DNA of 64,000 bases from Spirochaetia bacterium (lineage in GTDB: Bacteria; Spirochaetota; Spirochaetia; SP-2023). Of this stretch, positions 22,644 to 46,194 are shown in pieces. The notes under the pieces were generated by a model. That model was not told the origin of the DNA. It ran no database searches and saw nothing but the letters and a program-made list of their open reading frames with translations. Each line of letters starts with the position of its first letter. The stretch's first letter is position 1. The translations under genes and the position numbers were made by a program. The stretch is from assembly GCA_965225855.1 (NCBI GenBank), contig CBDDCK010000005.1:640001-704000 (forward strand). Reading direction: 5' to 3'.

Positions 22644-25600
22644 GTTGCAGTTGCATACCTTTTTTCATTTCGGTTTAATAAATTCTTTAGGTCTTTAACT
22701 TTAGCAGTTGTTGCAGTTGCATACCTTTTTTCATTTCGGTTTAATCCGTTGCCACGAAACCTTACCACCAAGGGCGTTGCAGTTGCATACCTTTTTTCAT
22801 TTCGGTTTAATCCTTGGCTTTGATTTTTTGGATATTATTTAGTTGCAGTTGCATACCTTTTTTCATTTCGGTTTAATACCTCTACCCCTATCTCTCCCCC
22901 CACTCCTGTTGCAGTTGCATACCTTTTTTCATTTCGGTTTAATACCTCTACCCCTATCTCTCCCCCCACTCCTGTTGCAGTTGCATACCTTTTTTCATTT
23001 CGGTTTAATCTTATTCTGCTTCTTAAGTCTATTATAGGTGTTGCAGTTGCATACCTTTTTTCATTTCGGTTTAATTCAGACCCAACAGACAAACCATGAC
23101 CGGCAGTTGCAGTTGCATACCTTTTTTCATTTCGGTTTAATGATTTGGATTGTGAATTGTGGTAGGCTATAGTTGCAGTTGCATACCTTTTTTCATTTCG
23201 GTTTAATTGCGCTTAGTCGCAAGGTCAACATCCAGGCGTTGCAGTTGCATACCTTTTTTCATTTCGGTTTAATCCTCTGGAGGCCACAAAGTGTAAGGCA
23301 GTGGTTGCAGTTGCATACCTTTTTTCATTTCGGTTTAATTTACGGGAAATACAAAGATACAATATTTTTGTTGCAGTTGCATACCTTTTTTCATTTCGGT
23401 TTAATATGCCAATAACATCTGGACTATCTCTTTTTGTTGCAGTTGCATACCTTTTTTCATTTCGGTTTAATCCTATAGGGATCACTGGTGGCTCACCTCT
23501 TGTTGCAGTTGCATACCTTTTTTCATTTCGGTTTAATACACATCTTTAATCAAAAATCCTACTTCTTGTTGCAGTTGCATACCTTTTTTCATTTCGGTTT
23601 AATTTCACTGCGACCAAGGGCAATATCCTGTTGGTTGCAGTTGCATACCTTTTTTCATTTCGGTTTAATCTTTGGTGTAATCATAATGTCGAATTTCTGG
23701 TTGCAGTTGCATACCTTTTTTCATTTCGGTTTAATACAAGGTCACGACCGCGACTAGGCTTGTATGTTGCAGTTGCATACCTTTTTTCATTTCGGTTTAA
23801 TTATTCAAGTCACCATACTCACCGGCAGCATGTTGCAGTTGCATACCTTTTTTCATTTCGGTTTAATACAAGGTCACGACCGCGACTAGGCTTGTATGTT
23901 GCAGTTGCATACCTTTTTTCATTTCGGTTTAATTATTCAAGTCACCATACTCACCGGCAGCATGTTGCAGTTGCATACCTTTTTTCATTTCGGTTTAATA
24001 TTAAACGCAACCCCCATTCAGTCGACCTAGTTGCAGTTGCATACCTTTTTTCATTTCGGTTTAATACCATCGCCAGCAACAAGTCTCTTTGCGTGGTTGC
24101 AGTTGCATACCTTTTTTCATTTCGGTTTAATGATTCTACCATTCTCACGCCCTACAAGAGCGTTGCAGTTGCATACCTTTTTTCATTTCGGTTTAATGTG
24201 AGGTATTAACAGCCGATGATATAGTTAGTTGCAGTTGCATACCTTTTTTCATTTCGGTTTAATTTGTCAGCCCAAATTGTTCTTTTGTATTATGTTGCAG
24301 TTGCATACCTTTTTTCATTTCGGTTTAATTATGCGCCCGTGATCTACAATATTATGGTTGTTGCAGTTGCATACCTTTTTTCATTTCGGTTTAATAGAAA
24401 TATCTCTAAGCATATTAAAAATCATGTTGCAGTTGCATACCTTTTTTCATTTCGGTTTAATTCTCTTTCGATACGATGCATCCATTCTTTAGTTGCAGTT
24501 GCATACCTTTTTTCATTTCGGTTTAATAGTAGACATATGCATAACTTTGCCAAGTATGTTGCAGTTGCATACCTTTTTTCATTTCGGTTTAATTTTGTGA
24601 ATGGTCCAGTGTCTGTATTCGTTGTTGCAGTTGCATACCTTTTTTCATTTCGGTTTAATAATTACAACATTCATCGGCAATAAATAAGAGTTGCAGTTGC
24701 ATACCTTTTTTCATTTCGGTTTAATCATTGTACCCTGCGGTGTACGATCAACATAGTTGCAGTTGCATACCTTTTTTCATTTCGGTTTAATTCCAGGAGT
24801 AACCATAACAGAACCCTTAGCGTTGCAGTTGCATACCTTTTTTCATTTCGGTTTAATCATTGTACCCTGCGGTGTACGATCAACATAGTTGCAGTTGCAT
24901 ACCTTTTTTCATTTCGGTTTAATTCCAGGAGTAACCATAACAGAACCCTTAGCGTTGCAGTTGCATACCTTTTTTCATTTCGGTTTAATCATTGTACCCT
25001 GCGGTGTACGATCAACATAGTTGCAGTTGCATACCTTTTTTCATTTCGGTTTAATTCCAGGAGTAACCATAACAGAACCCTTAGCGTTGCAGTTGCATAC
25101 CTTTTTTCATTTCGGTTTAATCATTGTACCCTGCGGTGTACGATCAACATAGTTGCAGTTGCATACCTTTTTTCATTTCGGTTTAATTCCAGGAGTAACC
25201 ATAACAGAACCCTTAGCGTTGCAGTTGCATACCTTTTTTCATTTCGGTTTAATCATTGTACCCTGCGGTGTACGATCAACATAGTTGCAGTTGCATACCT
25301 TTTTTCATTTCGGTTTAATAGTCTTAGGAATGGAGTGGGAAGTCTGAAGGTTGCAGTTGCATACCTTTTTTCATTTCGGTTTAATATTTTTGCCCGTTGT
25401 TTTGCTTTTATTGTGGTTGCAGTTGCATACCTTTTTTCATTTCGGTTTAATAAATTTGCCTGTTTTATATTCTCGTAGTACGTTGCAGTTGCATACCTTT
25501 TTTCATTTCGGTTTAATTGGAAGTCTTGGCTGGTGAAATTGTTAAATGTTGCAGTTGCATACCTTTTTTCATTTCGGTTTAATTGCTTTTTCTTTTTCCT

Positions 25601-28600
25601 GTGTTTTTTCTTGGTTGCAGTTGCATACCTTTTTTCATTTCGGTTTAATTTAGTGAGTGTCTTATTGCCGTCTTGATGGGTTGCAGTTGCATACCTTTTT
25701 TCATTTCGGTTTAATTCGATATTCTAGGCGCTAGTAACGCAGCTGTTGCAGTTGCATACCTTTTTTCATTTCGGTTTAATGCACTGATGCATAAATAGCT
25801 AGGTTTATCGGTTGCAGTTGCATACCTTTTTTCATTTCGGTTTAATTCGATATTCTAGGCGCTAGTAACGCAGCTGTTGCAGTTGCATACCTTTTTTCAT
25901 TTCGGTTTAATGCACTGATGCATAAATAGCTAGGTTTATCGGTTGCAGTTGCATACCTTTTTTCATTTCGGTTTAATTCGATATTCTAGGCGCTAGTAAC
26001 GCAGCTGTTGCAGTTGCATACCTTTTTTCATTTCGGTTTAATCCTCTGGTAATTCTCCAAGGCTTCGATGCAGTTGCAGTTGCATACCTTTTTTCATTTC
26101 GGTTTAATCCTCTGGTAATTCTCCAAGGCTTCGATGCAGTTGCAGTTGCATACCTTTTTTCATTTCGGTTTAATTTTTAGGTCGTGATGGTGAAGAGCTG
26201 GAAGGTTGCAGTTGCATACCTTTTTTCATTTCGGTTTAATTAAACAATATTAAAGGCAAGTTTATCTTGTGTTGCAGTTGCATACCTTTTTTCATTTCGG
26301 TTTAATAAAATCCAAACAAATCATTCAACAAAACAAGTTGCAGTTGCATACCTTTTTTCATTTCGGTTTAATTTCTGGGATATGATCAAGCGTTTCGCTG
26401 GCGTTGCAGTTGCATACCTTTTTTCATTTCGGTTTAATCCGTAGAGACAACATTATGAATAAGCGAAGGTTGCAGTTGCATACCTTTTTTCATTTCGGTT
26501 TAATAGTAGTAACAAGACCAAAATGAACATTTCCGTTGCAGTTGCATACCTTTTTTCATTTCGGTTTAATAGTAAAACCTCCTACGTCTGCGCATAAAAT
26601 GTTGCAGTTGCATACCTTTTTTCATTTCGGTTTAATATAATTATTTTATTCTCCACCCCTATAAAAGTTGCAGTTGCATACCTTTTTTCATTTCGGTTTA
26701 ATTGTGGCAATTGCCCAATTCGGGATATTTTCGTTGCAGTTGCATACCTTTTTTCATTTCGGTTTAATTAGCAGACCGTAAGGACTTACCAAGAGCTTGT
26801 TGCAGTTGCATACCTTTTTTCATTTCGGTTTAATTAAAAAGGTTGTTACGAGCACTGTAGAACAGTTGCAGTTGCATACCTTTTTTCATTTCGGTTTAAT
26901 TTAAGCGTTGCTGGGCTAAAGGTAATGTGTTGCAGTTGCATACCTTTTTTCATTTCGGTTTAATTGTAATTTCTACTGCTGTAGATTAGATAAAGTTGCA
27001 GTTGCATACCTTTTTTCATTTCGGTTTAATTGTAATTTCTACTGCTGTAGATTAGATAAAGTTGCAGTTGCATACCTTTTTTCATTTCGGTTTAATAGCC
27101 TTTACCAAGTTCTTCCACCCAATCATGTTGCAGTTGCATACCTTTTTTCATTTCGGTTTAATTGACCCGTCAACAGGTCAGTTTCGGCCTTAGTTGCAGT
27201 TGCATACCTTTTTTCATTTCGGTTTAATATATAAATGCTAAGTAATACCTCCGAATTAGTTGCAGTTGCATACCTTTTTTCATTTCGGTTTAATAATAGC
27301 AATTGGACAACCGAAAGCAAAGGGTTGCAGTTGCATACCTTTTTTCATTTCGGTTTAATAGCCTTTACCAAGTTCTTCCACCCAATCATGTTGCAGTTGC
27401 ATACCTTTTTTCATTTCGGTTTAATTGACCCGTCAACAGGTCAGTTTCGGCCTTAGTTGCAGTTGCATACCTTTTTTCATTTCGGTTTAATATATAAATG
27501 CTAAGTAATACCTCCGAATTAGTTGCAGTTGCATACCTTTTTTCATTTCGGTTTAATGAAAACCTTGAGTAACATAAACCGGTGTAGGTTGCAGTTGCAT
27601 ACCTTTTTTCATTTCGGTTTAATATAAAAAAGCTCGGCCTGCTTGTTCAGTGTGTTGCAGTTGCATACCTTTTTTCATTTCGGTTTAATAGCCCCAGTCG
27701 TTTTTTATGAATGTTTTGAGTTGCAGTTGCATACCTTTTTTCATTTCGGTTTAATCCCAATACTACCCAAATCTCCCTCATCCTTGTTGCAGTTGCATAC
27801 CTTTTTTCATTTCGGTTTAATCCTAATACCACCCAAATCTCTCTCATTCTTGTTGCAGTTGCATACCTTTTTTCATTTCGGTTTAATCTAGGTCTGTATT
27901 TGATCTATCTCATTCTGGTTGCAGTTGCATACCTTTTTTCATTTCGGTTTAATATTTGTAGATTGTTCTACCATAGAAGATTGGTTGCAGTTGCATACCT
28001 TTTTTCATTTCGGTTTAATAATACCGATTATCTACAGACTGGCAAGCGAGTTGCAGTTGCATACCTTTTTTCATTTCGGTTTAATATTTGTAGATTGTTC
28101 TACCATAGAAGATTGGTTGCAGTTGCATACCTTTTTTCATTTCGGTTTAATAATACCGATTATCTACAGACTGGCAAGCGAGTTGCAGTTGCATACCTTT
28201 TTTCATTTCGGTTTAATATTTGTAGATTGTTCTACCATAGAAGATTGGTTGCAGTTGCATACCTTTTTTCATTTCGGTTTAATAATACCGATTATCTACA
28301 GACTGGCAAGCGAGTTGCAGTTGCATACCTTTTTTCATTTCGGTTTAATAGCCCCAGTCGTTTTTTATGAATGTTTTGAGTTGCAGTTGCATACCTTTTT
28401 TCATTTCGGTTTAATCCCAATACTACCCAAATCTCCCTCATCCTTGTTGCAGTTGCATACCTTTTTTCATTTCGGTTTAATATAATACTTACTCCATTGT
28501 GTAAGGCTGGGGGTTGCAGTTGCATACCTTTTTTCATTTCGGTTTAATGTGTATCATAGTAGGTCTTGAATCTAGGTGGTTGCAGTTGCATACCTTTTTT

Positions 28601-31600
28601 CATTTCGGTTTAATCCAACCAAGCAATCGCAGCAAAACTGCCAGGTTGCAGTTGCATACCTTTTTTCATTTCGGTTTAATAAAATAATCTTTACCCCAGC
28701 AACGAGTCTGGTTGCAGTTGCATACCTTTTTTCATTTCGGTTTAATGCATGGACAAGAGAATGCCGCAGAAACCTTGTTGCAGTTGCATACCTTTTTTCA
28801 TTTCGGTTTAATCCACAGAACAAAAACCTAAGACTTGGTTGGGTTGCAGTTGCATACCTTTTTTCATTTCGGTTTAATAGATATAAGATGCGGATTGCGC
28901 TTAGTCGCGTTGCAGTTGCATACCTTTTTTCATTTCGGTTTAATATTCCTGCCAAAATAGCGCCTATAGCCATAGTTGCAGTTGCATACCTTTTTTCATT
29001 TCGGTTTAATCATAACATGATCGATATGATGGCGCATTTTGTTGCAGTTGCATACCTTTTTTCATTTCGGTTTAATACTCTTAGGAATAGTATGAGAAGT
29101 CTGTAGGTTGCAGTTGCATACCTTTTTTCATTTCGGTTTAATTTTTTCTTCCGTGCTTATTAATATTTTATTGTTGCAGTTGCATACCTTTTTTCATTTC
29201 GGTTTAATATTTATGTTGCATATAACAACCTCCTATAAGTTGCAGTTGCATACCTTTTTTCATTTCGGTTTAATCTTCTCAGCCAATTCACGTTGATGAT
29301 TCTTGTTGCAGTTGCATACCTTTTTTCATTTCGGTTTAATACCATGACCGGCCATCGTGCCCTGCGGTGTGTTGCAGTTGCATACCTTTTTTCATTTCGG
29401 TTTAATCAGACCAAGCAGACCATCGGACTTAATCCTGTTGCAGTTGCATACCTTTTTTCATTTCGGTTTAATAAATAGATTCTGGTCTCTATAGAATTCC
29501 TTGTTGCAGTTGCATACCTTTTTTCATTTCGGTTTAATAATAGCCTGATCCAAAGGAAGATCACCTTCGTTGCAGTTGCATACCTTTTTTCATTTCGGTT
29601 TAATGAGACTACCGGCTTCATATTTGGGCTTTGAGTTGCAGTTGCATACCTTTTTTCATTTCGGTTTAATAAATAGATTCTGGTCTCTATAGAATTCCTT
29701 GTTGCAGTTGCATACCTTTTTTCATTTCGGTTTAATAATAGCCTGATCCAAAGGAAGATCACCTTCGTTGCAGTTGCATACCTTTTTTCATTTCGGTTTA
29801 ATGAGACTACCGGCTTCATATTTGGGCTTTGAGTTGCAGTTGCATACCTTTTTTCATTTCGGTTTAATATTTTCACAAAACCTTCACACTCACTCTCTGT
29901 TGCAGTTGCATACCTTTTTTCATTTCGGTTTAATAGTAAAATCATAAAGGATAAAGTAATATTAGTTGCAGTTGCATACCTTTTTTCATTTCGGTTTAAT
30001 ACCCCAACAACGAACCTGAAGATCGTAAGTGTTGCAGTTGCATACCTTTTTTCATTTCGGTTTAATCCTACAACCCTTCACAACTCACTCATAATCGTTG
30101 CAGTTGCATACCTTTTTTCATTTCGGTTTAATTTATACTGGCGCTAATGTTGGTGAGGATGTGTTGCAGTTGCATACCTTTTTTCATTTCGGTTTAATGA
30201 GACTACCGGATTCATATCTGGAGCTTGCGTTGCAGTTGCATACCTTTTTTCATTTCGGTTTAATAATTCTTAGATAATATCCATTTAGGGCTAAGTTGCA
30301 GTTGCATACCTTTTTTCATTTCGGTTTAATTAGTCATAAACAAACTTTCTAAAGAATATTGTTGCAGTTGCATACCTTTTTTCATTTCGGTTTAATTTTC
30401 TGGTGGTGTGGGCTCGGCAAAATCCAGTTGCAGTTGCATACCTTTTTTCATTTCGGTTTAATAATGATCAGCGCCCAACCAGATAACTTTGTGTTGCAGT
30501 TGCATACCTTTTTTCATTTCGGTTTAATTTTCTGGTGGTGTGGGCTCGGCAAAATCCAGTTGCAGTTGCATACCTTTTTTCATTTCGGTTTAATTTTGCT
30601 TTCTTGAATCTGCTTGTATTTTAGGTTGCAGTTGCATACCTTTTTTCATTTCGGTTTAATTTTGCTTTCTTGAATCTGCTTGTATTTTAGGTTGCAGTTG
30701 CATACCTTTTTTCATTTCGGTTTAATTCGGAAACAGTTATGCCAGTAGCATTGGAAGTTGCAGTTGCATACCTTTTTTCATTTCGGTTTAATACGATCAA
30801 CCTCGGCTTGAATCTGCTTGTATTTTAGGTTGCAGTTGCATACCTTTTTTCATTTCGGTTTAATCTACCCAAATGCCAATAATCATAAGTAGTAGTTGCA
30901 GTTGCATACCTTTTTTCATTTCGGTTTAATTCAGCTAGCAGAGATTCATGATACAGTTCTGTTGCAGTTGCATACCTTTTTTCATTTCGGTTTAATCGAT
31001 CATGTATTAAAGCAATCTTCTCACGGGTTGCAGTTGCATACCTTTTTTCATTTCGGTTTAATAGGTCACTAACGCGGCGCTGTACAGAAGTGTTGCAGTT
31101 GCATACCTTTTTTCATTTCGGTTTAATAATCCAAACCATCGTGGTAGATGGCGTAGCGTTGCAGTTGCATACCTTTTTTCATTTCGGTTTAATATGAAGG
31201 TTTATTTTGTGCCTTATGGGCTTGTTGCAGTTGCATACCTTTTTTCATTTCGGTTTAATCTCATTTCTCTCATCCTTCACAACCTTCCAGTTGCAGTTGC
31301 ATACCTTTTTTCATTTCGGTTTAATATCAAAAATAGTTTTTTGAAGAGATTTCTGGTTGCAGTTGCATACCTTTTTTCATTTCGGTTTAATTCGCTACCA
31401 ACAGAAAGACCATGACCGGCAGTTGCAGTTGCATACCTTTTTTCATTTCGGTTTAATAAAGGCTAGATTTTCTAAGGTTGGGCCTTTGTTGCAGTTGCAT
31501 ACCTTTTTTCATTTCGGTTTAATAAATTTTTATCAAAATAATGGCCACCTTGCGTTGCAGTTGCATACCTTTTTTCATTTCGGTTTAATAGGAAACTTCT

Positions 31601-34600
31601 TTCCTTGACAAGGCATATTGTTGCAGTTGCATACCTTTTTTCATTTCGGTTTAATACTTAGATTTTTAAGTGCTTCTACAGGTGTGTTGCAGTTGCATAC
31701 CTTTTTTCATTTCGGTTTAATCTATTGATTATGGGCCTGTTGGGCTCTTGGGTTGCAGTTGCATACCTTTTTTCATTTCGGTTTAATTAAAAAATCGTCA
31801 ATGTCGCTACTGTGTCGGTTGCAGTTGCATACCTTTTTTCATTTCGGTTTAATCTTAAATTTGTAACTTTTTTATAATTTTTGGTTGCAGTTGCATACCT
31901 TTTTTCATTTCGGTTTAATCTGCTTAATTTTTTAGCTTGGAGACTTGTGTTGCAGTTGCATACCTTTTTTCATTTCGGTTTAATTTTATCAACATCTCCA
32001 ATCTACACCAGTAGGTTGCAGTTGCATACCTTTTTTCATTTCGGTTTAATGCGAGAGCCAGCACGGGCGTTACGCTCAAGGTTGCAGTTGCATACCTTTT
32101 TTCATTTCGGTTTAATTACCCCAACAGCGAGTATGAAGTTTCTGCGGTTGCAGTTGCATACCTTTTTTCATTTCGGTTTAATCTAAAGACTCTAGCTCTT
32201 TCTCCTTTTGCAGTTGCAGTTGCATACCTTTTTTCATTTCGGTTTAATTACTCTTTAAGTAGATCGTTATCTATACCAGTTGCAGTTGCATACCTTTTTT
32301 CATTTCGGTTTAATTGTAACAACCCCCGAATGTAGGCTTGGATAGTTGCAGTTGCATACCTTTTTTCATTTCGGTTTAATAAAAGTATCGCCCAAAACAG
32401 GAGCAGTCACGTTGCAGTTGCATACCTTTTTTCATTTCGGTTTAATTGGCCGGTCAAAAGGTCAGTCTCAGCCTCAGTTGCAGTTGCATACCTTTTTTCA
32501 TTTCGGTTTAATTAGCAAAGCTAAAGGTAATTGGCAAGGTGGGTTGCAGTTGCATACCTTTTTTCATTTCGGTTTAATAAATCCAGAAACTAGCAGGCCT
32601 TTTAGTTGGTTGCAGTTGCATACCTTTTTTCATTTCGGTTTAATTCAAGGGCCATCGTAATGCGACGAATGCGGGTTGCAGTTGCATACCTTTTTTCATT
32701 TCGGTTTAATATAATTACAAAAACCCCAATACAGAAGCAGGTTGCAGTTGCATACCTTTTTTCATTTCGGTTTAATTTGAGCACGGAGAAATTAGAAGAT
32801 ACAAAGGTTGCAGTTGCATACCTTTTTTCATTTCGGTTTAATTCACTCCTTACCTTAAGCAATCCTTGATTGGTTGCAGTTGCATACCTTTTTTCATTTC
32901 GGTTTAATAGCCACGTTATCATGGATCGCATAAAGTTTGTTGCAGTTGCATACCTTTTTTCATTTCGGTTTAATAAGGCTGCATGCGTATAACAAGATTG
33001 CACCGTTGCAGTTGCATACCTTTTTTCATTTCGGTTTAATCTTGTTAAGCTTTTTAAGCCTATTATAAGTGTTGCAGTTGCATACCTTTTTTCATTTCGG
33101 TTTAATTCTGTATTTCAGCAATACTAGGTTTCTATTGTTGCAGTTGCATACCTTTTTTCATTTCGGTTTAATATACCTGTGATGCCGTCTGTACATTAAA
33201 ACGTTGCAGTTGCATACCTTTTTTCATTTCGGTTTAATATATAAAAAAGCATCAATAGATTCACCCTCGTTGCAGTTGCATACCTTTTTTCATTTCGGTT
33301 TAATAAATTCCACAAGGTCAAAAATTATTTGCAAGTTGCAGTTGCATACCTTTTTTCATTTCGGTTTAATAAAAAAGAAAAATCCAGAAAGAACAGGACA
33401 GTTGCAGTTGCATACCTTTTTTCATTTCGGTTTAATTACAATTATTGGCAATAATAGAGATATGCTGTTGCAGTTGCATACCTTTTTTCATTTCGGTTTA
33501 ATCAAGGCTAGCGACTTCTGCAGCCAATTTGTGTTGCAGTTGCATACCTTTTTTCATTTCGGTTTAATTTGTTAGCACTTCTGCCGCTTCTGGTATTGGT
33601 TGCAGTTGCATACCTTTTTTCATTTCGGTTTAATTATTATAGGTAGATTTGCGCAAAGAGTCAAGTTGCAGTTGCATACCTTTTTTCATTTCGGTTTAAT
33701 TGTGAAAAATAGCTCCTACATTTTTTTTCTGTTGCAGTTGCATACCTTTTTTCATTTCGGTTTAATTCATGCATAAGACGAAGACCCCACTCGAAAGTTG
33801 CAGTTGCATACCTTTTTTCATTTCGGTTTAATCAACCTTCTGAGATTGACCGGTCAACAGATGTTGCAGTTGCATACCTTTTTTCATTTCGGTTTAATTA
33901 ATATAGCAATCCATTGCTAATATTTCTAGTTGCAGTTGCATACCTTTTTTCATTTCGGTTTAATTCCACATCGGGAGATTAAATCATGCAGATAGTTGCA
34001 GTTGCATACCTTTTTTCATTTCGGTTTAATAACGGTGCTTGTAACAACCTTCTTGGCGACGTTGCAGTTGCATACCTTTTTTCATTTCGGTTTAATTTGG
34101 CTATATATAAGTAGGTTTTGGGCACTGTTGCAGTTGCATACCTTTTTTCATTTCGGTTTAATAAAAGTATCGCCTAATACAGGAGCAGTCACGTTGCAGT
34201 TGCATACCTTTTTTCATTTCGGTTTAATTTGTTTAGTTTTTCAGTCTTCACTATTATAGTTGCAGTTGCATACCTTTTTTCATTTCGGTTTAATGAAAAG
34301 GCCACCAAAACCTTCACGTGTCAAGTTGCAGTTGCATACCTTTTTTCATTTCGGTTTAATAGAAATATACAGTGGAATCAAAAGAATTAGGTTGCAGTTG
34401 CATACCTTTTTTCATTTCGGTTTAATTTCGGCCTTACGAACCTTGTCAACCTGAGCGTTGCAGTTGCATACCTTTTTTCATTTCGGTTTAATCATATTAA
34501 GGTCGCCGTACTCACCACAACAGTTGCAGTTGCATACCTTTTTTCATTTCGGTTTAATTTTTTTGTATTGGTCGATTATCTTGGTACTGTTGCAGTTGCA

Positions 34601-35944
34601 TACCTTTTTTCATTTCGGTTTAATTATCCTGAGATCGTTGACCGTTATCATTGTGTTGCAGTTGCATACCTTTTTTCATTTCGGTTTAATCGTTTAGTGG
34701 CAAGATCAACATCTAAACCAGTTGCAGTTGCATACCTTTTTTCATTTCGGTTTAATACATTCCGCACACGGTCATAGTCAACCTGTGTTGCAGTTGCATA
34801 CCTTTTTTCATTTCGGTTTAATCATAGGCTTGTTTTTGTTCATAGCTTAGTTGTTGCAGTTGCATACCTTTTTTCATTTCGGTTTAATTACCATCGTTGT
34901 CACCTAAAGTAGAAACATGTTGCAGTTGCATACCTTTTTTCATTTCGGTTTAATTCAATTGTGTTTTTTTGCTTGTCAAAGGCTGTTGCAGTTGCATACC
35001 TTTTTTCATTTCGGTTTAATCAAAGAGTCAAGCGTTTTTTGATGATTTTCGTTGCAGTTGCATACCTTTTTTCATTTCGGTTTAATAGATTTCTGGTATT
35101 CAAAAACATTCTTTCTGTTGCAGTTGCATACCTTTTTTCATTTCGGTTTAATTTAGGATCAGAAGCAATAATGCGCCTAGCAGTTGCAGTTGCATACCTT
35201 TTTTCATTTCGGTTTAATATAGGCTGAAACCGTATAACAAGATTTGCAGTTGCAGTTGCATACCTTTTTTCATTTCGGTTTAATAAAAATCAAAGCTTAT
35301 TCAGCTTCTTTAACGTTGCAGTTGCATACCTTTTTTCATTTCGGTTTAATAGCCACATTGTCGTGGATCGCATATAGTTTGTTGCAGTTGCATACCTTTT
35401 TTCATTTCGGTTTAATAGCGCTAGTGCCGTCACGGCCACCAGTAATGTTGCAGTTGCATACCTTTTTTCATTTCGGTTTAATAATTGCCACAATCCATAA
35501 ACTGGCAAACAAGTTGCAGTTGCATACCTTTTTTCATTTCGGTTTAATATGCTGATGATCTCAATAAGTTTTTGTCCTGTTGCAGTTGCATACCTTTTTT
35601 CATTTCGGTTTAATAATTGCCACAATCCATAAACTGGCAAACAAGTTGCAGTTGCATACCTTTTTTCATTTCGGTTTAATTTTTTGCTATATAAGGTAGG
35701 TTTTGACACTGTTGCAGTTGCATACCTTTTTTCATTTCGGTTTAATGACCACTGCCAACGAATCGGCAGCAATTTGGTTGCAGTTGCATACCTTTTTTCA
35801 TTTCGGTTTAATAATCTAATCTACAACAGTAGAAATTTGAAGGTTGCAGTTGCATACCTTTTTTCATTTCGGTTTAATACCTTCTCACGAGACCTCTTCG
35901 TCTCTCTTGTTGCAGTTGCATACCTTTTTTCATTTCGGTTTAAT
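22644..35944 (+). CRISPR. Type II-C CRISPR array, 202 repeats / 201 spacers (mostly 30 nt)
   Basis: Repeat GTTGCAGTTGCATACCTTTTTTCATTTCGGTTTAAT, 66-bp period; first repeat starts 22644, last 35909. Orientation + inferred from tracrRNA anti-repeat and a -10-like TTTAAT at each repeat end, as in Neisseria II-C. Confidence 0.99.
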
Positions 35945-36010
35945 AGTCCCCTAGCTAAGTAGTTGTTTTCACATTGCTTAGCTAGGTATGGGCTTGAGAA
36001 AAAATGCAAT
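35945..36010 (+). promoter_or_regulatory. CRISPR leader (cas-proximal) with inverted repeat CCTAGCTAAGTA...TGCTTAGCTAGG
   Basis: Abuts the last intact repeat on the cas2 side; a near-identical copy follows the degenerate repeat at 36551. Confidence 0.7.
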
Positions 36011-36240
36011 TCAACACAGTAAAAGGGCTTGTTCTCTGGCACTTTTTTTGCTGTTATCGCGTTTGTGCTGGCTGTAGCTGCTGATGTTCGCATATTGTAT
36101 ATCCGTTATCGTTATTATATCTACCTGTCCCCCCTTCGGGGGGAGAGAGTTTTTGATTCACTCTAATAATCGCTTGCGTTGTTTATTGCCGCCAGCAAAT
36201 TTATAGTATACAGAATATTGGGCCATAGTAAAGTCTTGTT
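36011..36240 (-). pseudogene. cas2: cas2 3' fragment, diverged duplicate with in-frame stop
   Basis: Translates FTMAQYSVYYKFAGGNKQRKRLLE*IKNSLPPKGGQVDIITITDIQYANISSYSQHKRDNSKKSAREQALLLC*, colinear with the intact cas2. Confidence 0.9.
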
Positions 36241-36516: not shown

Positions 36517-36549
36517 AGCTTGCATACCTTTTCTTCATTTCACTTTAAT
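36517..36549 (+). CRISPR. Solitary degenerate CRISPR repeat next to intact cas2
   Basis: AGCTTGCATACCTTTTCTTCATTTCACTTTAAT versus consensus; followed by a leader copy. Confidence 0.8.
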
Positions 36550-36613
36550 TAGTGCCCTAGCTAAGTAATTTTTTCAGATTGCTTAGCTAGGCATGGGTTT
36601 GGGAAAAGGCCAT

Positions 36614-36949
36614 TCAAAACAGTAAAAGCGGTTGTTCTCTGGCACTTTTTTTGCTGTTATCGCGTTTGTGCTGGCTGTAGCTGATGATATTGGCATATTG
36701 TATATCCGTGATTGTAATTATATCTACTTGCCCCTTCTGGGGTAGGGCACTTTTGATTAACTCTAGTAGTCGCTTGCGCTGCTCGCTTCCGCCAGCAAAT
36801 TTATAGTATACAGAGTATTGGGCCATAGTAAAGCCTTGCTCTAATAGAAACTGGCGAAAGCGCGTGGCTTCTTTGCGTTCTTGTTGTTCCACTACTGGTA
36901 GGTCAAACATTAGATATAGCCACATCACTTTGTAAGGGTTAAGGCGCAT
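36614..36949 (-). CDS. cas2: CRISPR-associated endonuclease Cas2
   Basis: MWLYLMFDLPV...FRQFLL..GFTMAQYSVY...ITDIQY; downstream of cas1. Confidence 0.96.
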   Translation of the reverse strand: MRLNPYKVMWLYLMFDLPVVEQQERKEATRFRQFLLEQGFTMAQYSVYYKFAGGSEQRKRLLELIKSALPQKGQVDIITITDIQYANIISYSQHKRDNSKKSAREQPLLLF

Positions 36950-37905
36950 AGTTCTACTACATCAATAGCGGTTTGCTCATCTAAGGTGATTGGCTCTAGC
37001 TTTTGTTGCTTGCCCTCTAACACCATGCAAAAGTTTTGCACATAGCGCAGCTCTTGGCGCATTAGGTAGCTTTGTTCGTTGCTGTAATCTAGTTCTTGGC
37101 GTAGTAACTGACTAAGCGCTCGCTTACTTTCGCTATTCAGTTCACGATAACCCCAATGGTAGTATAGGTGGGTAACAAAGGCGTCTACCAACGGGCGTAG
37201 GGTTTCCATAAGGTCGCTAGCTAGGCAATAGGGGTTTTGGCTGTTGCAGTGCTGTATGCCAAACGCCCCCAGTAAACCGCAGCAATTGATGGCTCGTATC
37301 ACACAACCCAGCAAAATGGTATAGCCGTAGTTGAGTAAGCCATTGGGCGGCATTGGCCCCAAACGGCGGAAGTCATCGCCAAATAGCATAGGCCAATAGC
37401 GTTGGGCAGCTGTAGCTTCTAGCATCGTGCTGTCCCCGCTTTGTACCTTTTCGGCCATCGCCAGCAGTTCATTGGCTAAGGCTTGTTCTTCATTTGCTTC
37501 TAGGCAGTGGCGATTGTCCCAACCGAAGCTGGCAGCCATTTGCAATAGCCAGGCTTGGTTGCGTATTTTGTTTTGTACCACCCCTTGCCAGAGCCGTTTC
37601 TTTTTGGGCAACTTGGCCTCTACTTGTAGCCGTACCCGTTGTTGCAAACGGCTATGGCCGTCTAATGGCAGCATGGCTACCGAAGGTAAGTAGTCCGCAC
37701 CGCACAATAGCACAGGGATATTGCGCTTAGCCAATTGGTTTAGCAACGGTGTACTGACTGTGGATTGCGGACTATTCAGCAATAGCACGCCAATACGCTC
37801 TAGGTCTACAAGGTGCTTTTGGCCATTGCGCAGTAGTTCCAGATGGCCCCGCTTTTGGTGTAGGTAGCAGCCGCTGCTTTCTACTTCTATTACTTGTTCG
37901 TACAC
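36925..37905 (-). CDS. cas1: CRISPR-associated endonuclease Cas1 (type II)
   Basis: KIRNQ, SGD...EATAAQRYW..LFG, NGLLNYGYTIL, GIQH, LASDLMETLRPLVD. Confidence 0.96.
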   Translation of the reverse strand: MYEQVIEVESSGCYLHQKRGHLELLRNGQKHLVDLERIGVLLLNSPQSTVSTPLLNQLAKRNIPVLLCGADYLPSVAMLPLDGHSRLQQRVRLQVEAKLPKKKRLWQGVVQNKIRNQAWLLQMAASFGWDNRHCLEANEEQALANELLAMAEKVQSGDSTMLEATAAQRYWPMLFGDDFRRLGPMPPNGLLNYGYTILLGCVIRAINCCGLLGAFGIQHCNSQNPYCLASDLMETLRPLVDAFVTHLYYHWGYRELNSESKRALSQLLRQELDYSNEQSYLMRQELRYVQNFCMVLEGKQQKLEPITLDEQTAIDVVELCALTLTK

Positions 37906-37914
37906 AGAGGCCTA

Positions 37915-40900
37915 CTACCTATGGCGAACCCAGCCGCCGGGGCTAATGTATACCGCTTGGCATTGCATCTCGTCTCCAAAGATTTTGCTGATCACTTTGT
38001 ATTTCTGGGGGCTATTGGCTTCAATTAGGGGCCGTATATCTAATTTATCGTTTGTAGCGGAATATCCTTTCACCAAGTAGTATTGGCCATCGGCCTTACT
38101 GTACAAAGTGTCATTCTTATAAAGCCTAGTAAGGTGTTCGGCAGAATCTGGTGCTGTTTGCTCCTGCTTGCGTTGGGCTTGGTAGTAGCTAGTGAAGGTT
38201 ACTTTGTATTCTGCCTTACTACCGTTTACAGTGCGCCATATATCGCAGTAAGCATAGCCATCGGGCATGTAGTATTGTGGGCTGCTGGTTTTTGGCTGTA
38301 CTAGGGTTTGGTCTTTGGGTATGTAGCGTACCTTCTTGATGCCATGCTTTGCCCCATAGTCTTTGATGAAACTTTCCCAAGAGAGCTTCTTATCACCATC
38401 ACTTTGTTGCGCTTGGTAGGCCTCTTTTAGCCTTGTGCGCAGGCCATCATCAACTGGGCCTTGATAGCCTTGTTCCAGTGGCTCACAGTCTTTCTCTGTT
38501 ATCCCGCTTAGTAGCTTGCTGTTGACAAAGTAGCCATGCCAATAACGCAGGCCTATCTTGGGGTGTTCTAGCGCAAAGGCTTTGTGGCCTTCGTTCCATA
38601 ATTTTCCCAATGGTCCTTTTTGTGTTCTTTGTAGTAGTGCTTGGGTCTCTTGCTCTAGCTGTAGCAACTGGCCCCGTTGGGGTTTTATGGTTGCTGCTAT
38701 CTGGCGTAGTTCGCTTATCGAGCCTTGCAGTTCTTGTTGTTTCTTGCAGTTTGCTTTTGTGTTCTGGGCTTGGGCCGGGTTTGTTTCGGGCCGAGTAGCA
38801 ATATAATCCAGCAGCCAATGGGCTTGCTCTGGCCGTACCAACAATGGTAAGTTTTCACGCAGTGTTTTGCCATCTATAGCGCTAATTGCTTTGTAGATTA
38901 AACCATTCGCCGTTTCTGCAAACATCGCACTGTTATGGCTATGATCCTGTTTGTGGGACACAATGATACTGCTTACCACCGTTTCTATTTGCTGGCGTAA
39001 ACCCTGTCGTTCCCCAGCCATGCGCTGCATGGCATAGCGTTGCCTCCGCTTAGCTGTTTTCAGTTCTTCAGCTTCTTTGCCCAATAACTGGTCTTGACTA
39101 AATGCAAAGTAGCCACTCAAGCGTTTGAGCAAACTGCGGTCAATCATCGCTACCACTATCGCATCTATCGCATGGTGGCGGTGGTCATTGCGGTTTTTCT
39201 TTTTATGTTTGGGGTTCTCGTTGAGCAGACTATTGAGATTCAGGTTGTCCCGCAGCATTTCCGTTATGTGGCCATTGCTAGCCCACACTTGCGGGCAAAT
39301 AGATTGTAGATACTGCATAGCCTTACGGGCAATATAGGCGTTATCGGTAGTTTGCCTAGCCAAGAAGTGGTCATCGCTTTCATACCGTTTCATCGCTTCC
39401 GCTGTAAAGTGTTCTTGCTTGTTCTTAGGTAGGTTTCCGGTAGCTTGTTTGATTCGTTGCCAACGTTCCGCATCGTGGCCAAAAGCCTCGTAAGGGCTAC
39501 GGTCTCCCTTTTGGCGGTTGCAGGCCGTGTGGCTTAGCGTTAGGTTTGCCATACCATTATCTAAGGTACGGCTAAAGGGCAAGATATGCTCTATCTCCAC
39601 TCGGTTGTCGGGGCTAAATAAATCACTCGCAGGGATTTTTACGCCACAGTAAGGGCACTTTGCCGTAGTGTTCTTTAGGGCTAGCTCTTCATATAATTGC
39701 AGCTTGCGGCGGTCGTCCCTGCTGGGGTAGTGAATATTGTAGTTTTCCCGCAATTCTTTGTTCCGCCGCTCGTTTTGCTTTTTGTTCTCATTTTGTAGCT
39801 TGCTGATCTCGGCCTTGGCTTTGCGGCTATTCTTTAGGTCGCGCCCCAATTCAACCACCACCTCATCGGGTAGGCCATAATGGCCTATTATATCATTGAC
39901 TACCTTACGCACTTGGTTTAAGGCCACATGCACGGTTGGGTTGCCAATACGGCCATACTTAGCTTCATCACTGTTTATCTCTAAACCGGGCTTATTCTTT
40001 TGCAGCTTTTTGAGTGGGTAACATGATTCTGGCATTGCAGCACCATAATAGGGTAAAGTCGGCAGCAGCTGGCTCTTCTTCTGTTTATCGACACGCAGTT
40101 TCTGTAAATGGGTTGCACCGCCATCATCGGGGTATTGTTCCAATAAATAGTGTAGTACCTCCCGTTGCAGGCAGGCACTTAGCTCTGTCGTACCTGTCGG
40201 AAGTTCATAGGCAAATAGTGCTTGGCATTGTTGTTCACTTAGCCCCAGTTCTCTAAATGGCTGTAGCAGTTTGTCTTGCTCGTTATCCTTGGCATAGGTA
40301 AACAGCATAACCTTTTCACAAAGGCTATCTTGTTCCTCTAAGTTCAGCTTATGCCAGTGTTCTTTTCCAAAAAACTCGGGCTTTTGCATCTCTACATTGA
40401 CTACAGCACCCTCTAACTCTTCTTTACGGTTCTTTTCTAAGTTAAAGGTAATATTTTCGCTCCAGCCGAACATTTTGCGTATAGCTTTGAAGGTCATGCT
40501 TTTGCAGTTACACAGCTTATTGTAGAGCTGCAAGCGTTCTTGATTGTTTAAACTTATCTGGCTACCATGTTCATCTATCATGCGTAAGTTCAGCACGTTT
40601 TGGGCAATACGCAGCCGTTCACTACTGGGCTGGCTTTTATAGGCTCGGTCTTCATCTTCGTAGTACCAGCATTTGCCCCGTTCTGGTTTCTGTAAAGGCC
40701 GTTGATAAAATAGAATCTGCTCTAGCGTATCCCAATTGATGTTCTCAAAAGCTGGGTACTGGCTTTGCTGCTGCCTAATCGCTCTAAACTCATCGCGATA
40801 CATTTGTCTGTTGGCATAGAAATCGCCTATATCGGCCTGGGTGTTTTGCTCTCCTGCGGCTGTTGTAGCTTTGTCATTGCGGAAGCGTACACTTTGTTTT

Positions 40901-41457
40901 GCCTTTTTGCGTTGGTAGAGCCATGTACCCAAAGTAGCGTCTTGTGCCAAGGTTTGCTCCAACTTACGAATGCGCTGTAAATTGGCGCGCTCTTCCTTCT
41001 CTTTTTCTGTTGCTTTGTCTTCAGTTTTACTTTGTTTCCGATTACTTTGGTAGCCACGCCTCTGGCACAAGTGGAATAAAGCCCGCCCAAGTTCGTAAGG
41101 TTTTAGCTCTTGCTTCACCGCTAAAGAGCGCAATCGGTATGGGTCTTGTTTCATCAAGCTTGTATTTTCTGGGCTGTTGGGTGGTGGCAATAGCCCTTGT
41201 TGTTGTAGTTCTTTGGCAAATTTAGCCACGCGCCGTTTTAACCTACGTAGTCTGCGCCGACTACCTCTAGCCTCACGGCGAGCTACAGCTAACGAAGAAT
41301 CTTTTTCATCTCGACCATCACTAAATATACGCACTCCAGCCGTTTCTAACTGCTTTAGCGTATAAGTCTTTTTGTTTGCTTCTTTAGCATCTAGGCTCCA
41401 AATAGACCAGCCTATAGAATTTGTTCCTAGGTCTAAACCTAAGCGGTAAGGTTTCAT
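37915..41457 (-). CDS. cas9: Type II-C Cas9 (1180 aa)
   Basis: RuvC-I LGLDLGTNSIGW, Arg-rich bridge helix, NPTVHVALNQ, HNH EIEHILPFSRTLDN..N..CN..KG, RuvC-III HHAIDA; no csn2 or cas4. Confidence 0.97.
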   Translation of the reverse strand: MKPYRLGLDLGTNSIGWSIWSLDAKEANKKTYTLKQLETAGVRIFSDGRDEKDSSLAVARREARGSRRRLRRLKRRVAKFAKELQQQGLLPPPNSPENTSLMKQDPYRLRSLAVKQELKPYELGRALFHLCQRRGYQSNRKQSKTEDKATEKEKEERANLQRIRKLEQTLAQDATLGTWLYQRKKAKQSVRFRNDKATTAAGEQNTQADIGDFYANRQMYRDEFRAIRQQQSQYPAFENINWDTLEQILFYQRPLQKPERGKCWYYEDEDRAYKSQPSSERLRIAQNVLNLRMIDEHGSQISLNNQERLQLYNKLCNCKSMTFKAIRKMFGWSENITFNLEKNRKEELEGAVVNVEMQKPEFFGKEHWHKLNLEEQDSLCEKVMLFTYAKDNEQDKLLQPFRELGLSEQQCQALFAYELPTGTTELSACLQREVLHYLLEQYPDDGGATHLQKLRVDKQKKSQLLPTLPYYGAAMPESCYPLKKLQKNKPGLEINSDEAKYGRIGNPTVHVALNQVRKVVNDIIGHYGLPDEVVVELGRDLKNSRKAKAEISKLQNENKKQNERRNKELRENYNIHYPSRDDRRKLQLYEELALKNTTAKCPYCGVKIPASDLFSPDNRVEIEHILPFSRTLDNGMANLTLSHTACNRQKGDRSPYEAFGHDAERWQRIKQATGNLPKNKQEHFTAEAMKRYESDDHFLARQTTDNAYIARKAMQYLQSICPQVWASNGHITEMLRDNLNLNSLLNENPKHKKKNRNDHRHHAIDAIVVAMIDRSLLKRLSGYFAFSQDQLLGKEAEELKTAKRRQRYAMQRMAGERQGLRQQIETVVSSIIVSHKQDHSHNSAMFAETANGLIYKAISAIDGKTLRENLPLLVRPEQAHWLLDYIATRPETNPAQAQNTKANCKKQQELQGSISELRQIAATIKPQRGQLLQLEQETQALLQRTQKGPLGKLWNEGHKAFALEHPKIGLRYWHGYFVNSKLLSGITEKDCEPLEQGYQGPVDDGLRTRLKEAYQAQQSDGDKKLSWESFIKDYGAKHGIKKVRYIPKDQTLVQPKTSSPQYYMPDGYAYCDIWRTVNGSKAEYKVTFTSYYQAQRKQEQTAPDSAEHLTRLYKNDTLYSKADGQYYLVKGYSATNDKLDIRPLIEANSPQKYKVISKIFGDEMQCQAVYISPGGWVRHR

Positions 41458-41505: not shown

Positions 41506-41534
41506 TTGTCAAAACATCGTAATTTGTATAGTAT
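41506..41534 (+). promoter_or_regulatory. Sigma70-like promoter for tracrRNA
   Basis: TTGTCA-17 bp-TAGTAT, 7 bp upstream of the anti-repeat. Confidence 0.7.
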
Positions 41535-41541
41535 AGCTTCC

Positions 41542-41665
41542 GTTGAACCGAATTGAAAACAGGTATGCTTGGGCTATACGCTTAGCTGCCAACAAGCCTT
41601 GTAAGAGGCGCAAAATTATGGCTTAACTTCAATTAGTTTCCTTTTTGAAGTTAAGCCAGTTTTTT
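41542..41665 (+). ncRNA. tracrRNA
   Basis: GTTGAACCGAATTGAAAACAGGTATGC...CTGCCAAC complementary to the repeat; short nexus-like hairpin; terminator TGGCTTAACTTCAA/TTGAAGTTAAGCCA plus T-run. Confidence 0.9.
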
Positions 41666-44349: not shown

Positions 44350-46194
44350 CTATATGTCTGTATCTTGGCTCTTTAAAGCTGCTAAAAAGGCACTTTGCGG
44401 CAACTCGACAGAGCCGATCATTTTCATGCGCTTTTTGCCTTCTTTTTGCTTTTCTAACAATTTCTTTTTACGTGTGATGTCCCCACCATAGCATTTGGCT
44501 GTAACATCTTTGCGCAATGCATTGATTGTTTCACGAGCGATAATGGTAGCGCCAATTGCGGCTTGGATCGGGATTTTAAACTGTTGGCGTGGTATTTCTT
44601 TACTCAATTTTTCACAAATACTTCGACCCCGCCTTTGAGCATTGGTTTTGTGTGTCAACAAGGTTAAAGCATCGACAATGTCTCCATTGATCAAAATATC
44701 CACTTTATTGAGTTCTGTTACTTGGTAGTTAAGCAGTTCGTAGTCAAAAGAAGCATAACCTCGGCTCACGGATTTTAATTTATCGTAAAAATCAAATAGT
44801 ATTTCACCAAGAGGCATTTCATAGATTAGCTCTACACGTTTTATATCCAGATAGTTCATATTTTTTTGTAGGCCACGCTTCTGGCTACAAAGTGTCATCA
44901 AACCACCCAAATAATCTTCCGGCGTGATAATACTAGCTTGAATATAGGGCTCTTCTACCATTTTAAATGTGTTGGGTTTGGGGTAGAGTGCAGGGTTATC
45001 CAAATACCATTGGCTATCGTCATTGTTAGTAATTCGGTAGCGTACGGAAGGGGCCGTTAGTAAAATGTTTAGCCCAAATTCAGTTTCCAAGCGTTCTTGG
45101 ATTACTTCCAAATGCAATAAGCCTAAAAAACCACAGCGAAAGCCAAATCCTAAGACTGCCGAGGCATCTTTTTCATAAGTCAATGAAGCATCGTTCAAAG
45201 CCAGCTTTTCCATGGCTTTAATTAAGTCGTCATAGAGATTGCTATCTACCGGATAGATGGAAGAAAATACCACAGGCTTGACTGGTTTAAAACCTGCAAG
45301 CGGTTCATCTGCTGGGTTGGCTGCCAGTGTAATGGTATCTCCTACGGTAACTTCGTTGATATTCTTTACATTGCCTATTAGGAAACCTGCTTCACCAGCG
45401 CTTAAACTAATGCTAGAAACAAGCTTGATTTGAAAATAGCCTAAATCTTCCACATCATACTCTGCTTCTTTACCTTTTTGGCCGTGCATCAAACGGAAGC
45501 GTTGGCCTTTGCGCAGTTCTCCTTGGAAAACTCGCAAATGCAACACTACACCTCTATATGGGTCGTAATGGCTATCGAAAATTAAAGCTTTTAAAGCAGC
45601 TTGGCGGTTTCCTTGTAGCGGGGCTGGGCAATGCAGAATAATTCCTTCCAGTAAATCGACAACGCCTAGACCCGTCTTAGCCGACACGGAAAATATTAAT
45701 TCGGTGTTTAATCCTAAATCTTGTTCAATTTGTGTGGTAATTGCTGGTACATCGGCACTGGGTAAATCTACTTTATTTAGTACTGGTATAATCTCTAAAT
45801 TTTGCTCTAAAGCAATGTAAAAGTTTGCCAAAGTCTGGGCTTCAATCCCTTGGGTTGCATCTACCAATAGCAATGCCCCTTCACATGAAGCAATGGCCCG
45901 CGACACTTCGTAAGAAAAATCGACATGCCCCGGTGTGTCAATAAAATTGAGGCAGTACTCTAACCCATCACCTTTTGTTTGGTACAACATGGTAACCGCT
46001 TGGGATTTAATCGTAATGCCGCGCTCGCGCTCAATATCCATGGAATCAAGCAACTGGTTTTGAAATTCTCGGTCGGAAACTAACTTGGTTTCCTGAATAA
46101 AGCGATCTGCTAAGGTTGATTTACCATGGTCAATATGTGCAATAATACAAAAGTTTCGGATTCTTTCAGAAGGAAAGGGGAATTTAGCTGCCAT
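44350..46194 (-). CDS. lepA: Elongation factor 4 (LepA)
   Basis: IRNFCIIAHIDHGKST, GFRCGFLGLLH, KCYGGDITRKKKLLEKQK. Confidence 0.98.
   Translation of the reverse strand: MAAKFPFPSERIRNFCIIAHIDHGKSTLADRFIQETKLVSDREFQNQLLDSMDIERERGITIKSQAVTMLYQTKGDGLEYCLNFIDTPGHVDFSYEVSRAIASCEGALLLVDATQGIEAQTLANFYIALEQNLEIIPVLNKVDLPSADVPAITTQIEQDLGLNTELIFSVSAKTGLGVVDLLEGIILHCPAPLQGNRQAALKALIFDSHYDPYRGVVLHLRVFQGELRKGQRFRLMHGQKGKEAEYDVEDLGYFQIKLVSSISLSAGEAGFLIGNVKNINEVTVGDTITLAANPADEPLAGFKPVKPVVFSSIYPVDSNLYDDLIKAMEKLALNDASLTYEKDASAVLGFGFRCGFLGLLHLEVIQERLETEFGLNILLTAPSVRYRITNNDDSQWYLDNPALYPKPNTFKMVEEPYIQASIITPEDYLGGLMTLCSQKRGLQKNMNYLDIKRVELIYEMPLGEILFDFYDKLKSVSRGYASFDYELLNYQVTELNKVDILINGDIVDALTLLTHKTNAQRRGRSICEKLSKEIPRQQFKIPIQAAIGATIIARETINALRKDVTAKCYGGDITRKKKLLEKQKEGKKRMKMIGSVELPQSAFLAALKSQDTDI

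Follow-up and report, generated by a model that had tools for sequence, protein, structure and literature searches.

Microviruses and spirochaete hosts

Most microviruses, which are single-stranded DNA (ssDNA) phages, have no known host. The Shukshmavirinae (also written Sukshmavirinae), a subfamily known from metagenomes only, were named from termite guts (PMC5759034) and correspond to Family 3 of Kirchberger, Martinez and Ochman (2022; PMC9239249). In the tables of that paper, the subfamily carries the entry "CRISPR predicts Spirochaetes" (Table S4), 8 of its 58 rows are predicted on Brachyspira by CRISPR, and two Family 9 genomes have Treponema as predicted host (both Table S1), while its main text calls spirochaete links based on single binned contigs error-prone (PMC9239249). 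A link between microviruses and spirochaetes at the level of the phylum had therefore been predicted in print, from supplementary CRISPR predictions and doubted binned contigs. The present work concerns a type II-C CRISPR array in a 64,000-nucleotide (nt) stretch of a Spirochaetia bacterium (assembly GCA_965225855.1, contig CBDDCK010000005.1, positions 640,001 to 704,000), hereafter the window.

The array is very probably a Cas9 immune record, kept by a spirochaete of the genus of Candidatus Haliotispira prima in which several related microviruses, probably Shukshmavirinae, are likely to have caused repeated infections. An earlier inspection of the letters alone (the sequence-only reading) had proposed repeated infection of a probable spirochaete by Microviridae from peptides found in reverse-complement translations of the spacers; its observation is real, its interpretation is right in substance, and it firms up the predicted host link. 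According to the available text of PMC6282386, II-C Cas9 cuts ssDNA and RNA in vitro independently of a protospacer adjacent motif (PAM), and solitary repeat units, RacrVA1-3, are described as acting as RNA anti-CRISPRs for type V-A systems (Camara-Wilpert et al., 2023; PMC10651486).

Microvirus spacers in the type II-C array

All 22 peptide placements cited in the sequence-only reading were found where it had located them in the reverse-complement translation, and 18 of them exceed the 99th percentile of shuffled spacers against microvirus profiles. The four that fail are YVDRTPQGTM, both LQTSH spacers and SLRFLFC; of these, YVDRTPQGTM is identical over 6 of 6 shared residues to a spacer that does pass, the one at 29341. 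VTAPVLGDTF barely passes (28.8 against a threshold of 28.0), and its position within VP1 is unsure.

Two tests of the whole array identify spacers that derive from microviruses. In the first, which used microvirus proteins from 98 loci as references, a score of at least 38 was reached by 19 of 171 unique spacers but by a single sequence in each of the two control sets, 170 shuffles and 170 30-mers from the host genome. In the second, with profiles of VP1 to VP5 from the best-matching clade and the 99th percentile of shuffled spacers as threshold, 25 of 171 spacers passed where 1.7 were expected. These 25 occupy 27 of the 201 array positions and fall in VP1 (15), VP4 (5), VP2 (2), VP5 (2) and VP3 (1), the single VP3 match being of low complexity and probably false. 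The VP1 peptides line up along the protein at homologous sites. Because variable regions escape recognition, 25 is a floor for the number of microvirus spacers.

Repeated exposure is indicated by spacers that sample the same site in different versions. The RCWG site of VP1 occurs in three versions (28681, 30001 and 32117), and there are 13 homologous spacer pairs on the same strand, against 1 in shuffles, so that at least three related viruses were met. The suggestion that virus genes could be partly tiled from overlapping spacers holds for a modest part of VP1, of which 104 of 500 profile columns are covered by this array and 154 when the type V-A (Cas12a) array of the same genome is added. 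A virus genome cannot be rebuilt, since the pieces stem from several viruses and the overlaps are few: when all spacers of the two arrays were compared as nucleotides, just 19 overlaps came to light (0 in shuffles).

Host and other arrays of the genus

The contig that carries the window measures 2.03 Mb, and the genome to which it belongs (G000) 2.7 Mb. The host is a spirochaete, as the sequence-only reading had supposed: the genome encodes three FlaA genes, compared with none in 14 control genomes, and the best matches of its LepA are spirochaetes, at up to ~68% identity over the full length. Within the genus, LepA is 87-88% identical to that of genomes G401, G402 and G403, with which it forms a four-row clade (support 100; this tree and the VP1 tree discussed below were both built with FastTree). 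A protein of G402 carries the name Candidatus Haliotispira prima (Spirochaetia), and because the host LepA groups with this named protein the host belongs to the same genus. Its habitat is presumably marine and animal-associated, going by the genus name.

The same signal recurs in other arrays. In the host's own Cas12a array, 14 of 286 unique spacers pass the microvirus profiles (2.9 expected), and in sister genomes 20 of 59 (array G401a; 0.6 expected), 11 of 88 (G401b; 0.9) and 10 of 129 (G402a; 1.3) do so. Each of these three sister arrays has a repeat of its own, and no copy of the window's repeat was found in 60 relatives searched. Microviruses are thus recorded across the genus, in five arrays of three genomes, which is new. 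A cas1 search of G403 and G405 gave no match. In the 4 kb beyond the host Cas12a array, a short cas4-like fragment is the only cas trace, with no cas1 or cas2 open reading frame (ORF) recognised there.

Strand preference and PAM

The CRISPR RNA (crRNA) of the window array corresponds to the + strand, as follows from the orientation of the anti-repeat at 41542-41594. In this orientation, the passing spacers run antisense to the coding strand of the virus in 24 of 25 cases, and their guides would then pair with the virion strand. Arrays of type II-C in the sister genomes, whose orientation was assigned from repeat likeness, show the same preference (15 of 20 and 9 of 11 antisense), whereas the Cas12a arrays do not (6 of 14 and 6 of 10). 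The pooled counts are 48 of 56 for II-C and 12 of 24 for V-A (Fisher p = 0.0015), and such p-values overstate the case, because spacers are not independent. A preference of Cas9 guides for the virion strand that Cas12a guides do not share is new. PAM supply was rejected as its source, as it predicts 56.5% rather than 24 of 25.

Likely, virion-strand guides are favoured because II-C Cas9 would cut the ssDNA genome or its mRNA; a bias at capture is the alternative. If cutting is responsible, the Cas9-specific bias could represent a natural role for the ssDNA cleavage by II-C Cas9. The PAM, on the 3' side, may tentatively be placed at a T in position 5 of the flank, which was found in 10 of 12 flanks (by eye; few, and partly cross-virus) and in 0 of 6 self-matching sites. 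Overall, microvirus DNA would enter the cell and replicate, Cas1-Cas2 together with Cas9 would take 30-nt pieces beside a PAM with T at position 5, and guides pairing with the virion strand would be captured or kept preferentially.

Microvirus prophages in Brevinema

The capsid domain Phage_F was present in 3 of 401 Spirochaetota genomes (G095, G181 and G249). In G249 the carrier is a lone 5.7-kb contig, which is no proof of a host link. In G095 and G181, whose proteins are named Brevinema sp., the microvirus prophages are complete and lie among host genes in 59- and 115-kb contigs. On the G181 contig, LptB is 79-99% identical to its orthologues in the 11 other genomes of the family, within which prophages occur in 2 of 12 genomes. 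Prophages of Enterogokushovirus integrate at dif by means of the host XerC/D recombinases, and the direct repeats around the Brevinema prophages are taken to be dif-like by resemblance. That two Brevinema genomes carry microviruses as prophages flanked by dif-like repeats is new. Among the spacers of the window array, no convincing dif-like motif was seen.

Identity of the viruses and competing explanations

In a VP1 tree of 56 rows, from which the Shukshmavirinae record MG945808 was left out, a group of 43 rows (SH support 94) holds the 12 references that score best against the spacer peptides, all nine of the nine named Shukshmavirinae in the tree and the VP1s of both Brevinema prophages. 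The targets most likely belong to Shukshmavirinae, going by these sequence comparisons.

Several results weigh against repeated infection by Shukshmavirinae. The collections searched yielded no genome that bears the protospacers: at the nucleotide level, the best that 113 microviral loci offer is a match with 3 mismatches, lying at conserved motifs, and blastn of the whole array against 50,697 phage records gave weak matches only. Scans of IMG/VR with spacer-derived patterns returned 0, 0, 2 and 3 contigs; the two contigs had no match to a microvirus VP profile, and the three were microviruses with no spacer within 5 mismatches among the matches listed. Such patterns gave 0 in two metagenome scans, and among the matches listed for sequencing runs X1, X2, X4 and X5 there was no contig on a microviral spacer, nor any RNA holder for the runs. 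The 4-6 kb circular protospacer contigs whose recovery had been proposed as a check did not emerge from the IMG/VR, metagenome or sequencing-run searches. A Phage_F search of the host and of G401 to G405 found no prophage; as the host genome lacks one, the viruses would be lytic or cleared in this host. Arrays G402b (7 spacers fetched) and G404 (14 spacers) are without microvirus signal. The references came from spacer-led matches, and peptide score decided the choice of profile clade, making the tests partly circular; the spacer excess is far above what such circularity could plausibly make. Finally, the support of the group is below 95, the spacers were placed by score and not on the tree, and the named Shukshmavirinae rank only 88 to 229 of 231 by VP1 peptide score, for which reason the assignment is likely and not proven.

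The targets might instead infect this host but belong to another Family 3 lineage, such as a marine gokushovirus clade. The references at the top of the ranking are Logan/ENA proteins that lack a name, support for the enclosing branch is no higher than SH 94, and the group is densely sampled because a Brevinema prophage VP1 served as query. This is nevertheless unlikely, since the top 12 references, all inside the group, score 665-689 while the rows drawn outside it score 336-585, and Shukshmavirinae already has published spirochaete CRISPR predictions. It is highly unlikely that microvirus DNA merely entered without productive infection (through uptake or abortive entry of phages of neighbouring bacteria) and was sampled by promiscuous adaptation. 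Capture is not strict, as shown by six spacers identical to parts of the host's own chromosome, and the searches in the genus yielded neither a matching virus nor a prophage; yet the signal extends over five arrays of three genomes and four or five phage genes, reaches 20 of 59 spacers in one array, and points to one clade whose group also holds spirochaete prophages. Chance matching of short translations has a negligible probability: about one to three false positives are to be expected among the spacers that pass, and four of the 22 cited placements fail the threshold, but the roughly fifteen-fold excess over shuffles and host-genome controls, the one-strand bias, the homologous placement in VP1 and the replication in sister genomes stand against it, and a chance origin of the whole spacer set is ruled out by both the score test and the profile test.

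Repeated infection by several related microviruses thus remains the preferred explanation. The five arrays in three genomes, together with the Brevinema prophages, make the link between microviruses and spirochaetes solid and suggest hosts for a subfamily known from metagenomes. The sequence-only reading had implied an undescribed virus-host pair, which does not hold at the level of the phylum, given the 2022 prediction, and does hold at the level of the genus: no report of a microvirus link for the Haliotispira genus, or of a microvirus Racr, was found in the literature searched, which lay outside subscription journals. Most worth following are the bias between strands, the prophages of Brevinema and, described next, the Cas12a handles of microviruses.

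Cas12a repeat handles in spacers and microviruses

Two spacers of the array, s66 and s200, copy a Cas12a repeat handle in two versions, which differ from each other and from the host's own repeat. An origin in the host Cas12a array was rejected: against its 323 repeats, which are all identical, s66 and s200 show at least 4 and 5 mismatches, respectively, with 2 and 4 of these falling within the PAM-proximal 10 nt, and the host genome was found to contain no further intact Cas12a handle. Among the 50,697 phage records, both spacers match best to a site between genes in Capybara microvirus Cap1_SP_161, a member of the Shukshmavirinae according to Table S1 (PMC9239249). Cap1_SP_161 itself was rejected as the actual target, its VP1 peptide rank being just 207 of 231.

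Lone handles occur in four GenBank microviruses (Table 1), which were four of the five records matched by one handle query. The microviral handle is rare, given its presence in 2 of 98 microviral loci and in 0 of 10 further genomes fetched. In Cap1_SP_161 (MK496734), the handle is preceded by a promoter-like site (one of 6, where 2.4 are expected) and followed by a terminator-like site (1, with 0.1 expected), and the handle stem forms in all folds computed. By analogy with the Racr units, these lone handles are candidate RNA anti-CRISPRs, and they point to such a function in phages thought to be nearly without accessory functions. Two spacers copying a lone Cas12a handle and four microviruses carrying one are new; the term "Microvir" had 0 matches in the available text and supplements of PMC10651486.

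Two side observations concern these units. At L003:2186-2236, Cap1_SP_161 shows complementarity at 16 positions between the promoter region of the unit and the 18 nt that come after its handle; this stretch has no adjoining TTTV PAM and may represent self-regulation or a plain hairpin. In Leptospira phage LbrZ_5399 (KF114879, L331:1020), a Cas12a handle stands alone with a terminator-like hairpin behind it, and an annotated toxin-antitoxin gene lies downstream.

On balance, s66 and s200 were somewhat more probably taken from a lone Cas12a repeat, a Racr-like unit, of a tailed double-stranded DNA phage. Among the IMG/VR handle loci, 80 have sufficient flank and not one of these is microviral (40 more are too short to classify), the TAGAT that follows the handle in the spacers also follows it in 3 of 89 unique loci and in three contigs of 19-79 kb, a handle of this kind occurs in Leptospira phages, other spacers of the array match 4-13 kb contigs that resemble tailed phage by eye, and the handle-bearing Cap1_SP_161 ranks low for VP1 peptides, as given above. 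Against this stand the best match to a microvirus of the Shukshmavirinae, the predominance of microviruses among the records matched by the handle query, and the two versions of s66 and s200, a pattern also seen in the microviral spacers. A microviral source is accordingly possible but doubtful. More tentative still, and unlikely, is a two-sided conflict in which microviruses of this spirochaete would carry a Cas12a repeat mimic, an RNA anti-CRISPR, that blunts the host V-A system, and the host would answer with Cas9, s66 and s200 directing cuts in the decoy gene and the virion-strand guides destroying the ssDNA genome. If true, this would be, going by the literature searched, the first anti-CRISPR of ssDNA microviruses, inside an arms race with two CRISPR systems in a spirochaete.

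Features of the locus and other spacers

The CRISPR-Cas locus beside the array is of type II-C, with cas9, cas1 and cas2, a 36-nt repeat, spacers of about 30 nt (30 nt in 192 of 201) and an anti-repeat of a trans-activating CRISPR RNA (tracrRNA). The operon lacks csn2 and cas4, and just three ORFs lie between the array and an ABC (ATP-binding cassette) transporter. By eye, the anti-repeat is on the + strand upstream of cas9, and a promoter-like TTGTCA-17-TAGTAT at 41506-41534 stands ahead of the predicted tracrRNA. The coordinates of these features are collected in Table 1.

Table 1. Features of the CRISPR loci, microvirus spacers, lone handles and prophages. Plain positions refer to the window; G000 is the host genome.
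Feature	Position	Strand	Details
Type II-C CRISPR array	22644..35944	+	202 identical 36-nt repeats, 201 spacers, 171 unique
cas2	36614..36949	-	TIGR01573
cas1	36925..37905	-	NMENI (Neisseria) type; TIGR03639, 239 bits
cas9	37915..41457	-	1180 amino acids (aa); TIGR01865, 533 bits
Predicted tracrRNA	41542..41660	+	Anti-repeat (41542-41594) and downstream hairpins; read by eye; fold z = -3.98
lepA	44350..46194	-	Host taxonomic marker
Spacer s125	30865..30894	+	Antisense to VP1 (TTYDYWHLG); top profile score
Spacer s102	29341..29370	+	Antisense to VP1 (TPQGTMAGHG); overlaps s32 (24726) and s7/s133
Spacer s92	28681..28710	+	Antisense to VP1 (RCWGKDYF); site recurs in other versions at 30001, 32117
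Spacer s143	32051..32080	+	Antisense to VP1 (LERNARAGSR); 3 mismatches to bajarodmic virus 567
Spacer s180	34493..34522	+	Antisense to VP4 Rep (CGEYG motif); variant at 23802
Spacer s156	32909..32938	+	Antisense to VP5 (KLYAIHDNVA); same-peptide variant at 35351
Spacer s128	31063..31091	+	Antisense to VP2 (SVQRRVSD); absent from the sequence-only reading
Spacer s66	26965..26994	+	19-nt Cas12a repeat handle, then TAGAT; duplicate s67 at 27031
Spacer s200	35813..35842	+	Antisense copy of second handle version and TAGAT
Host type V-A locus	G000:C5:1069566-1094680 (L332, L333)		Cas12a 1568 aa (TIGR04330), 323 repeats
Lone intergenic Cas12a handle	L003:2172-2270		Cap1_SP_161, MK496734
Lone intergenic Cas12a handles	L180:3006; L308:2276; L329:5692		MK496751, MG945527, MG945824
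Microvirus prophage	L185:6943-11958 (G095:C4)		Five phage genes; dif-like direct repeats 5,015 nt apart
Microvirus prophage	L186:7382-12337 (G181:C14)		Five phage genes; dif-like direct repeats 4,955 nt apart

The array also shows signs of rearrangement. Its flank and the 3' end of cas2 are present as a decayed duplicate at 35945..36230, with a counterpart near 36520-36830 (by eye) that has a worn repeat adjoining cas2. Blocks of two or three spacers stand in tandem in up to five copies (24726-25283, 27954-28313 and 29473-29832), and 30 of the 201 spacers repeat other spacers of the array. A 36-nt spacer at 30793-30828 looks chimeric, its final 22 nt being those of the spacer at 30595.

Additionally, the array targets elements other than microviruses. 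The spacers at 26175, 27624, 28482, 29011, 31524, 32513 and 33437 match three contigs of run X5 (4,293, 7,746 and 12,728 nt), the smallest of which resembles terminase genes of tailed phage by eye. The spacers with exact matches to the host chromosome are those at 22812, 24132, 30931, 31128, 32315 and 33305; that at 31128 matches a dispersed host repeat with more than 100 near-copies.

Comparison with known systems

As in the Shukshmavirinae of the published tables, the spacers record gokushovirus-like VP1, VP2, VP4 and VP5 (PMC9239249). The host, by contrast, belongs to another spirochaete lineage, the Haliotispira genus rather than Brachyspira, and the evidence consists of dozens of spacers from five arrays in three genomes together with the Brevinema prophages, both absent from those tables, in which "Brevinema" has 0 matches (PMC9239249).

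The prophages of G095 and G181 share with those of Enterogokushovirus a size of about 5 kb, the absence of a listed integrase ORF and flanking direct repeats that are dif-like. They differ in that their hosts are spirochaetes (Brevinema) and the dif call was made by resemblance alone.

With the Racr units, the handle-bearing microviruses have in common a lone intergenic V-A repeat handle in a virus, and the host described here has a V-A system with the same handle. In distinction from the Racr units in the available text (PMC10651486), the carriers are ssDNA phages of 4.6-6.4 kb, the Racr function is a candidate one, and s66 and s200 are known from 30 nt.

The nearest precedent in kind is the Gokushovirinae record of Legionella pneumophila (Deecker et al., 10.1101/2021.03.08.434514), in the accessible part of which missing phages are likewise deduced from recurrent VP1, VP2 and VP4 spacers, the host having yielded neither an isolate nor a prophage. 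That record involves another phylum and another virus clade, and the same part reports neither a strand bias nor a repeat mimic.

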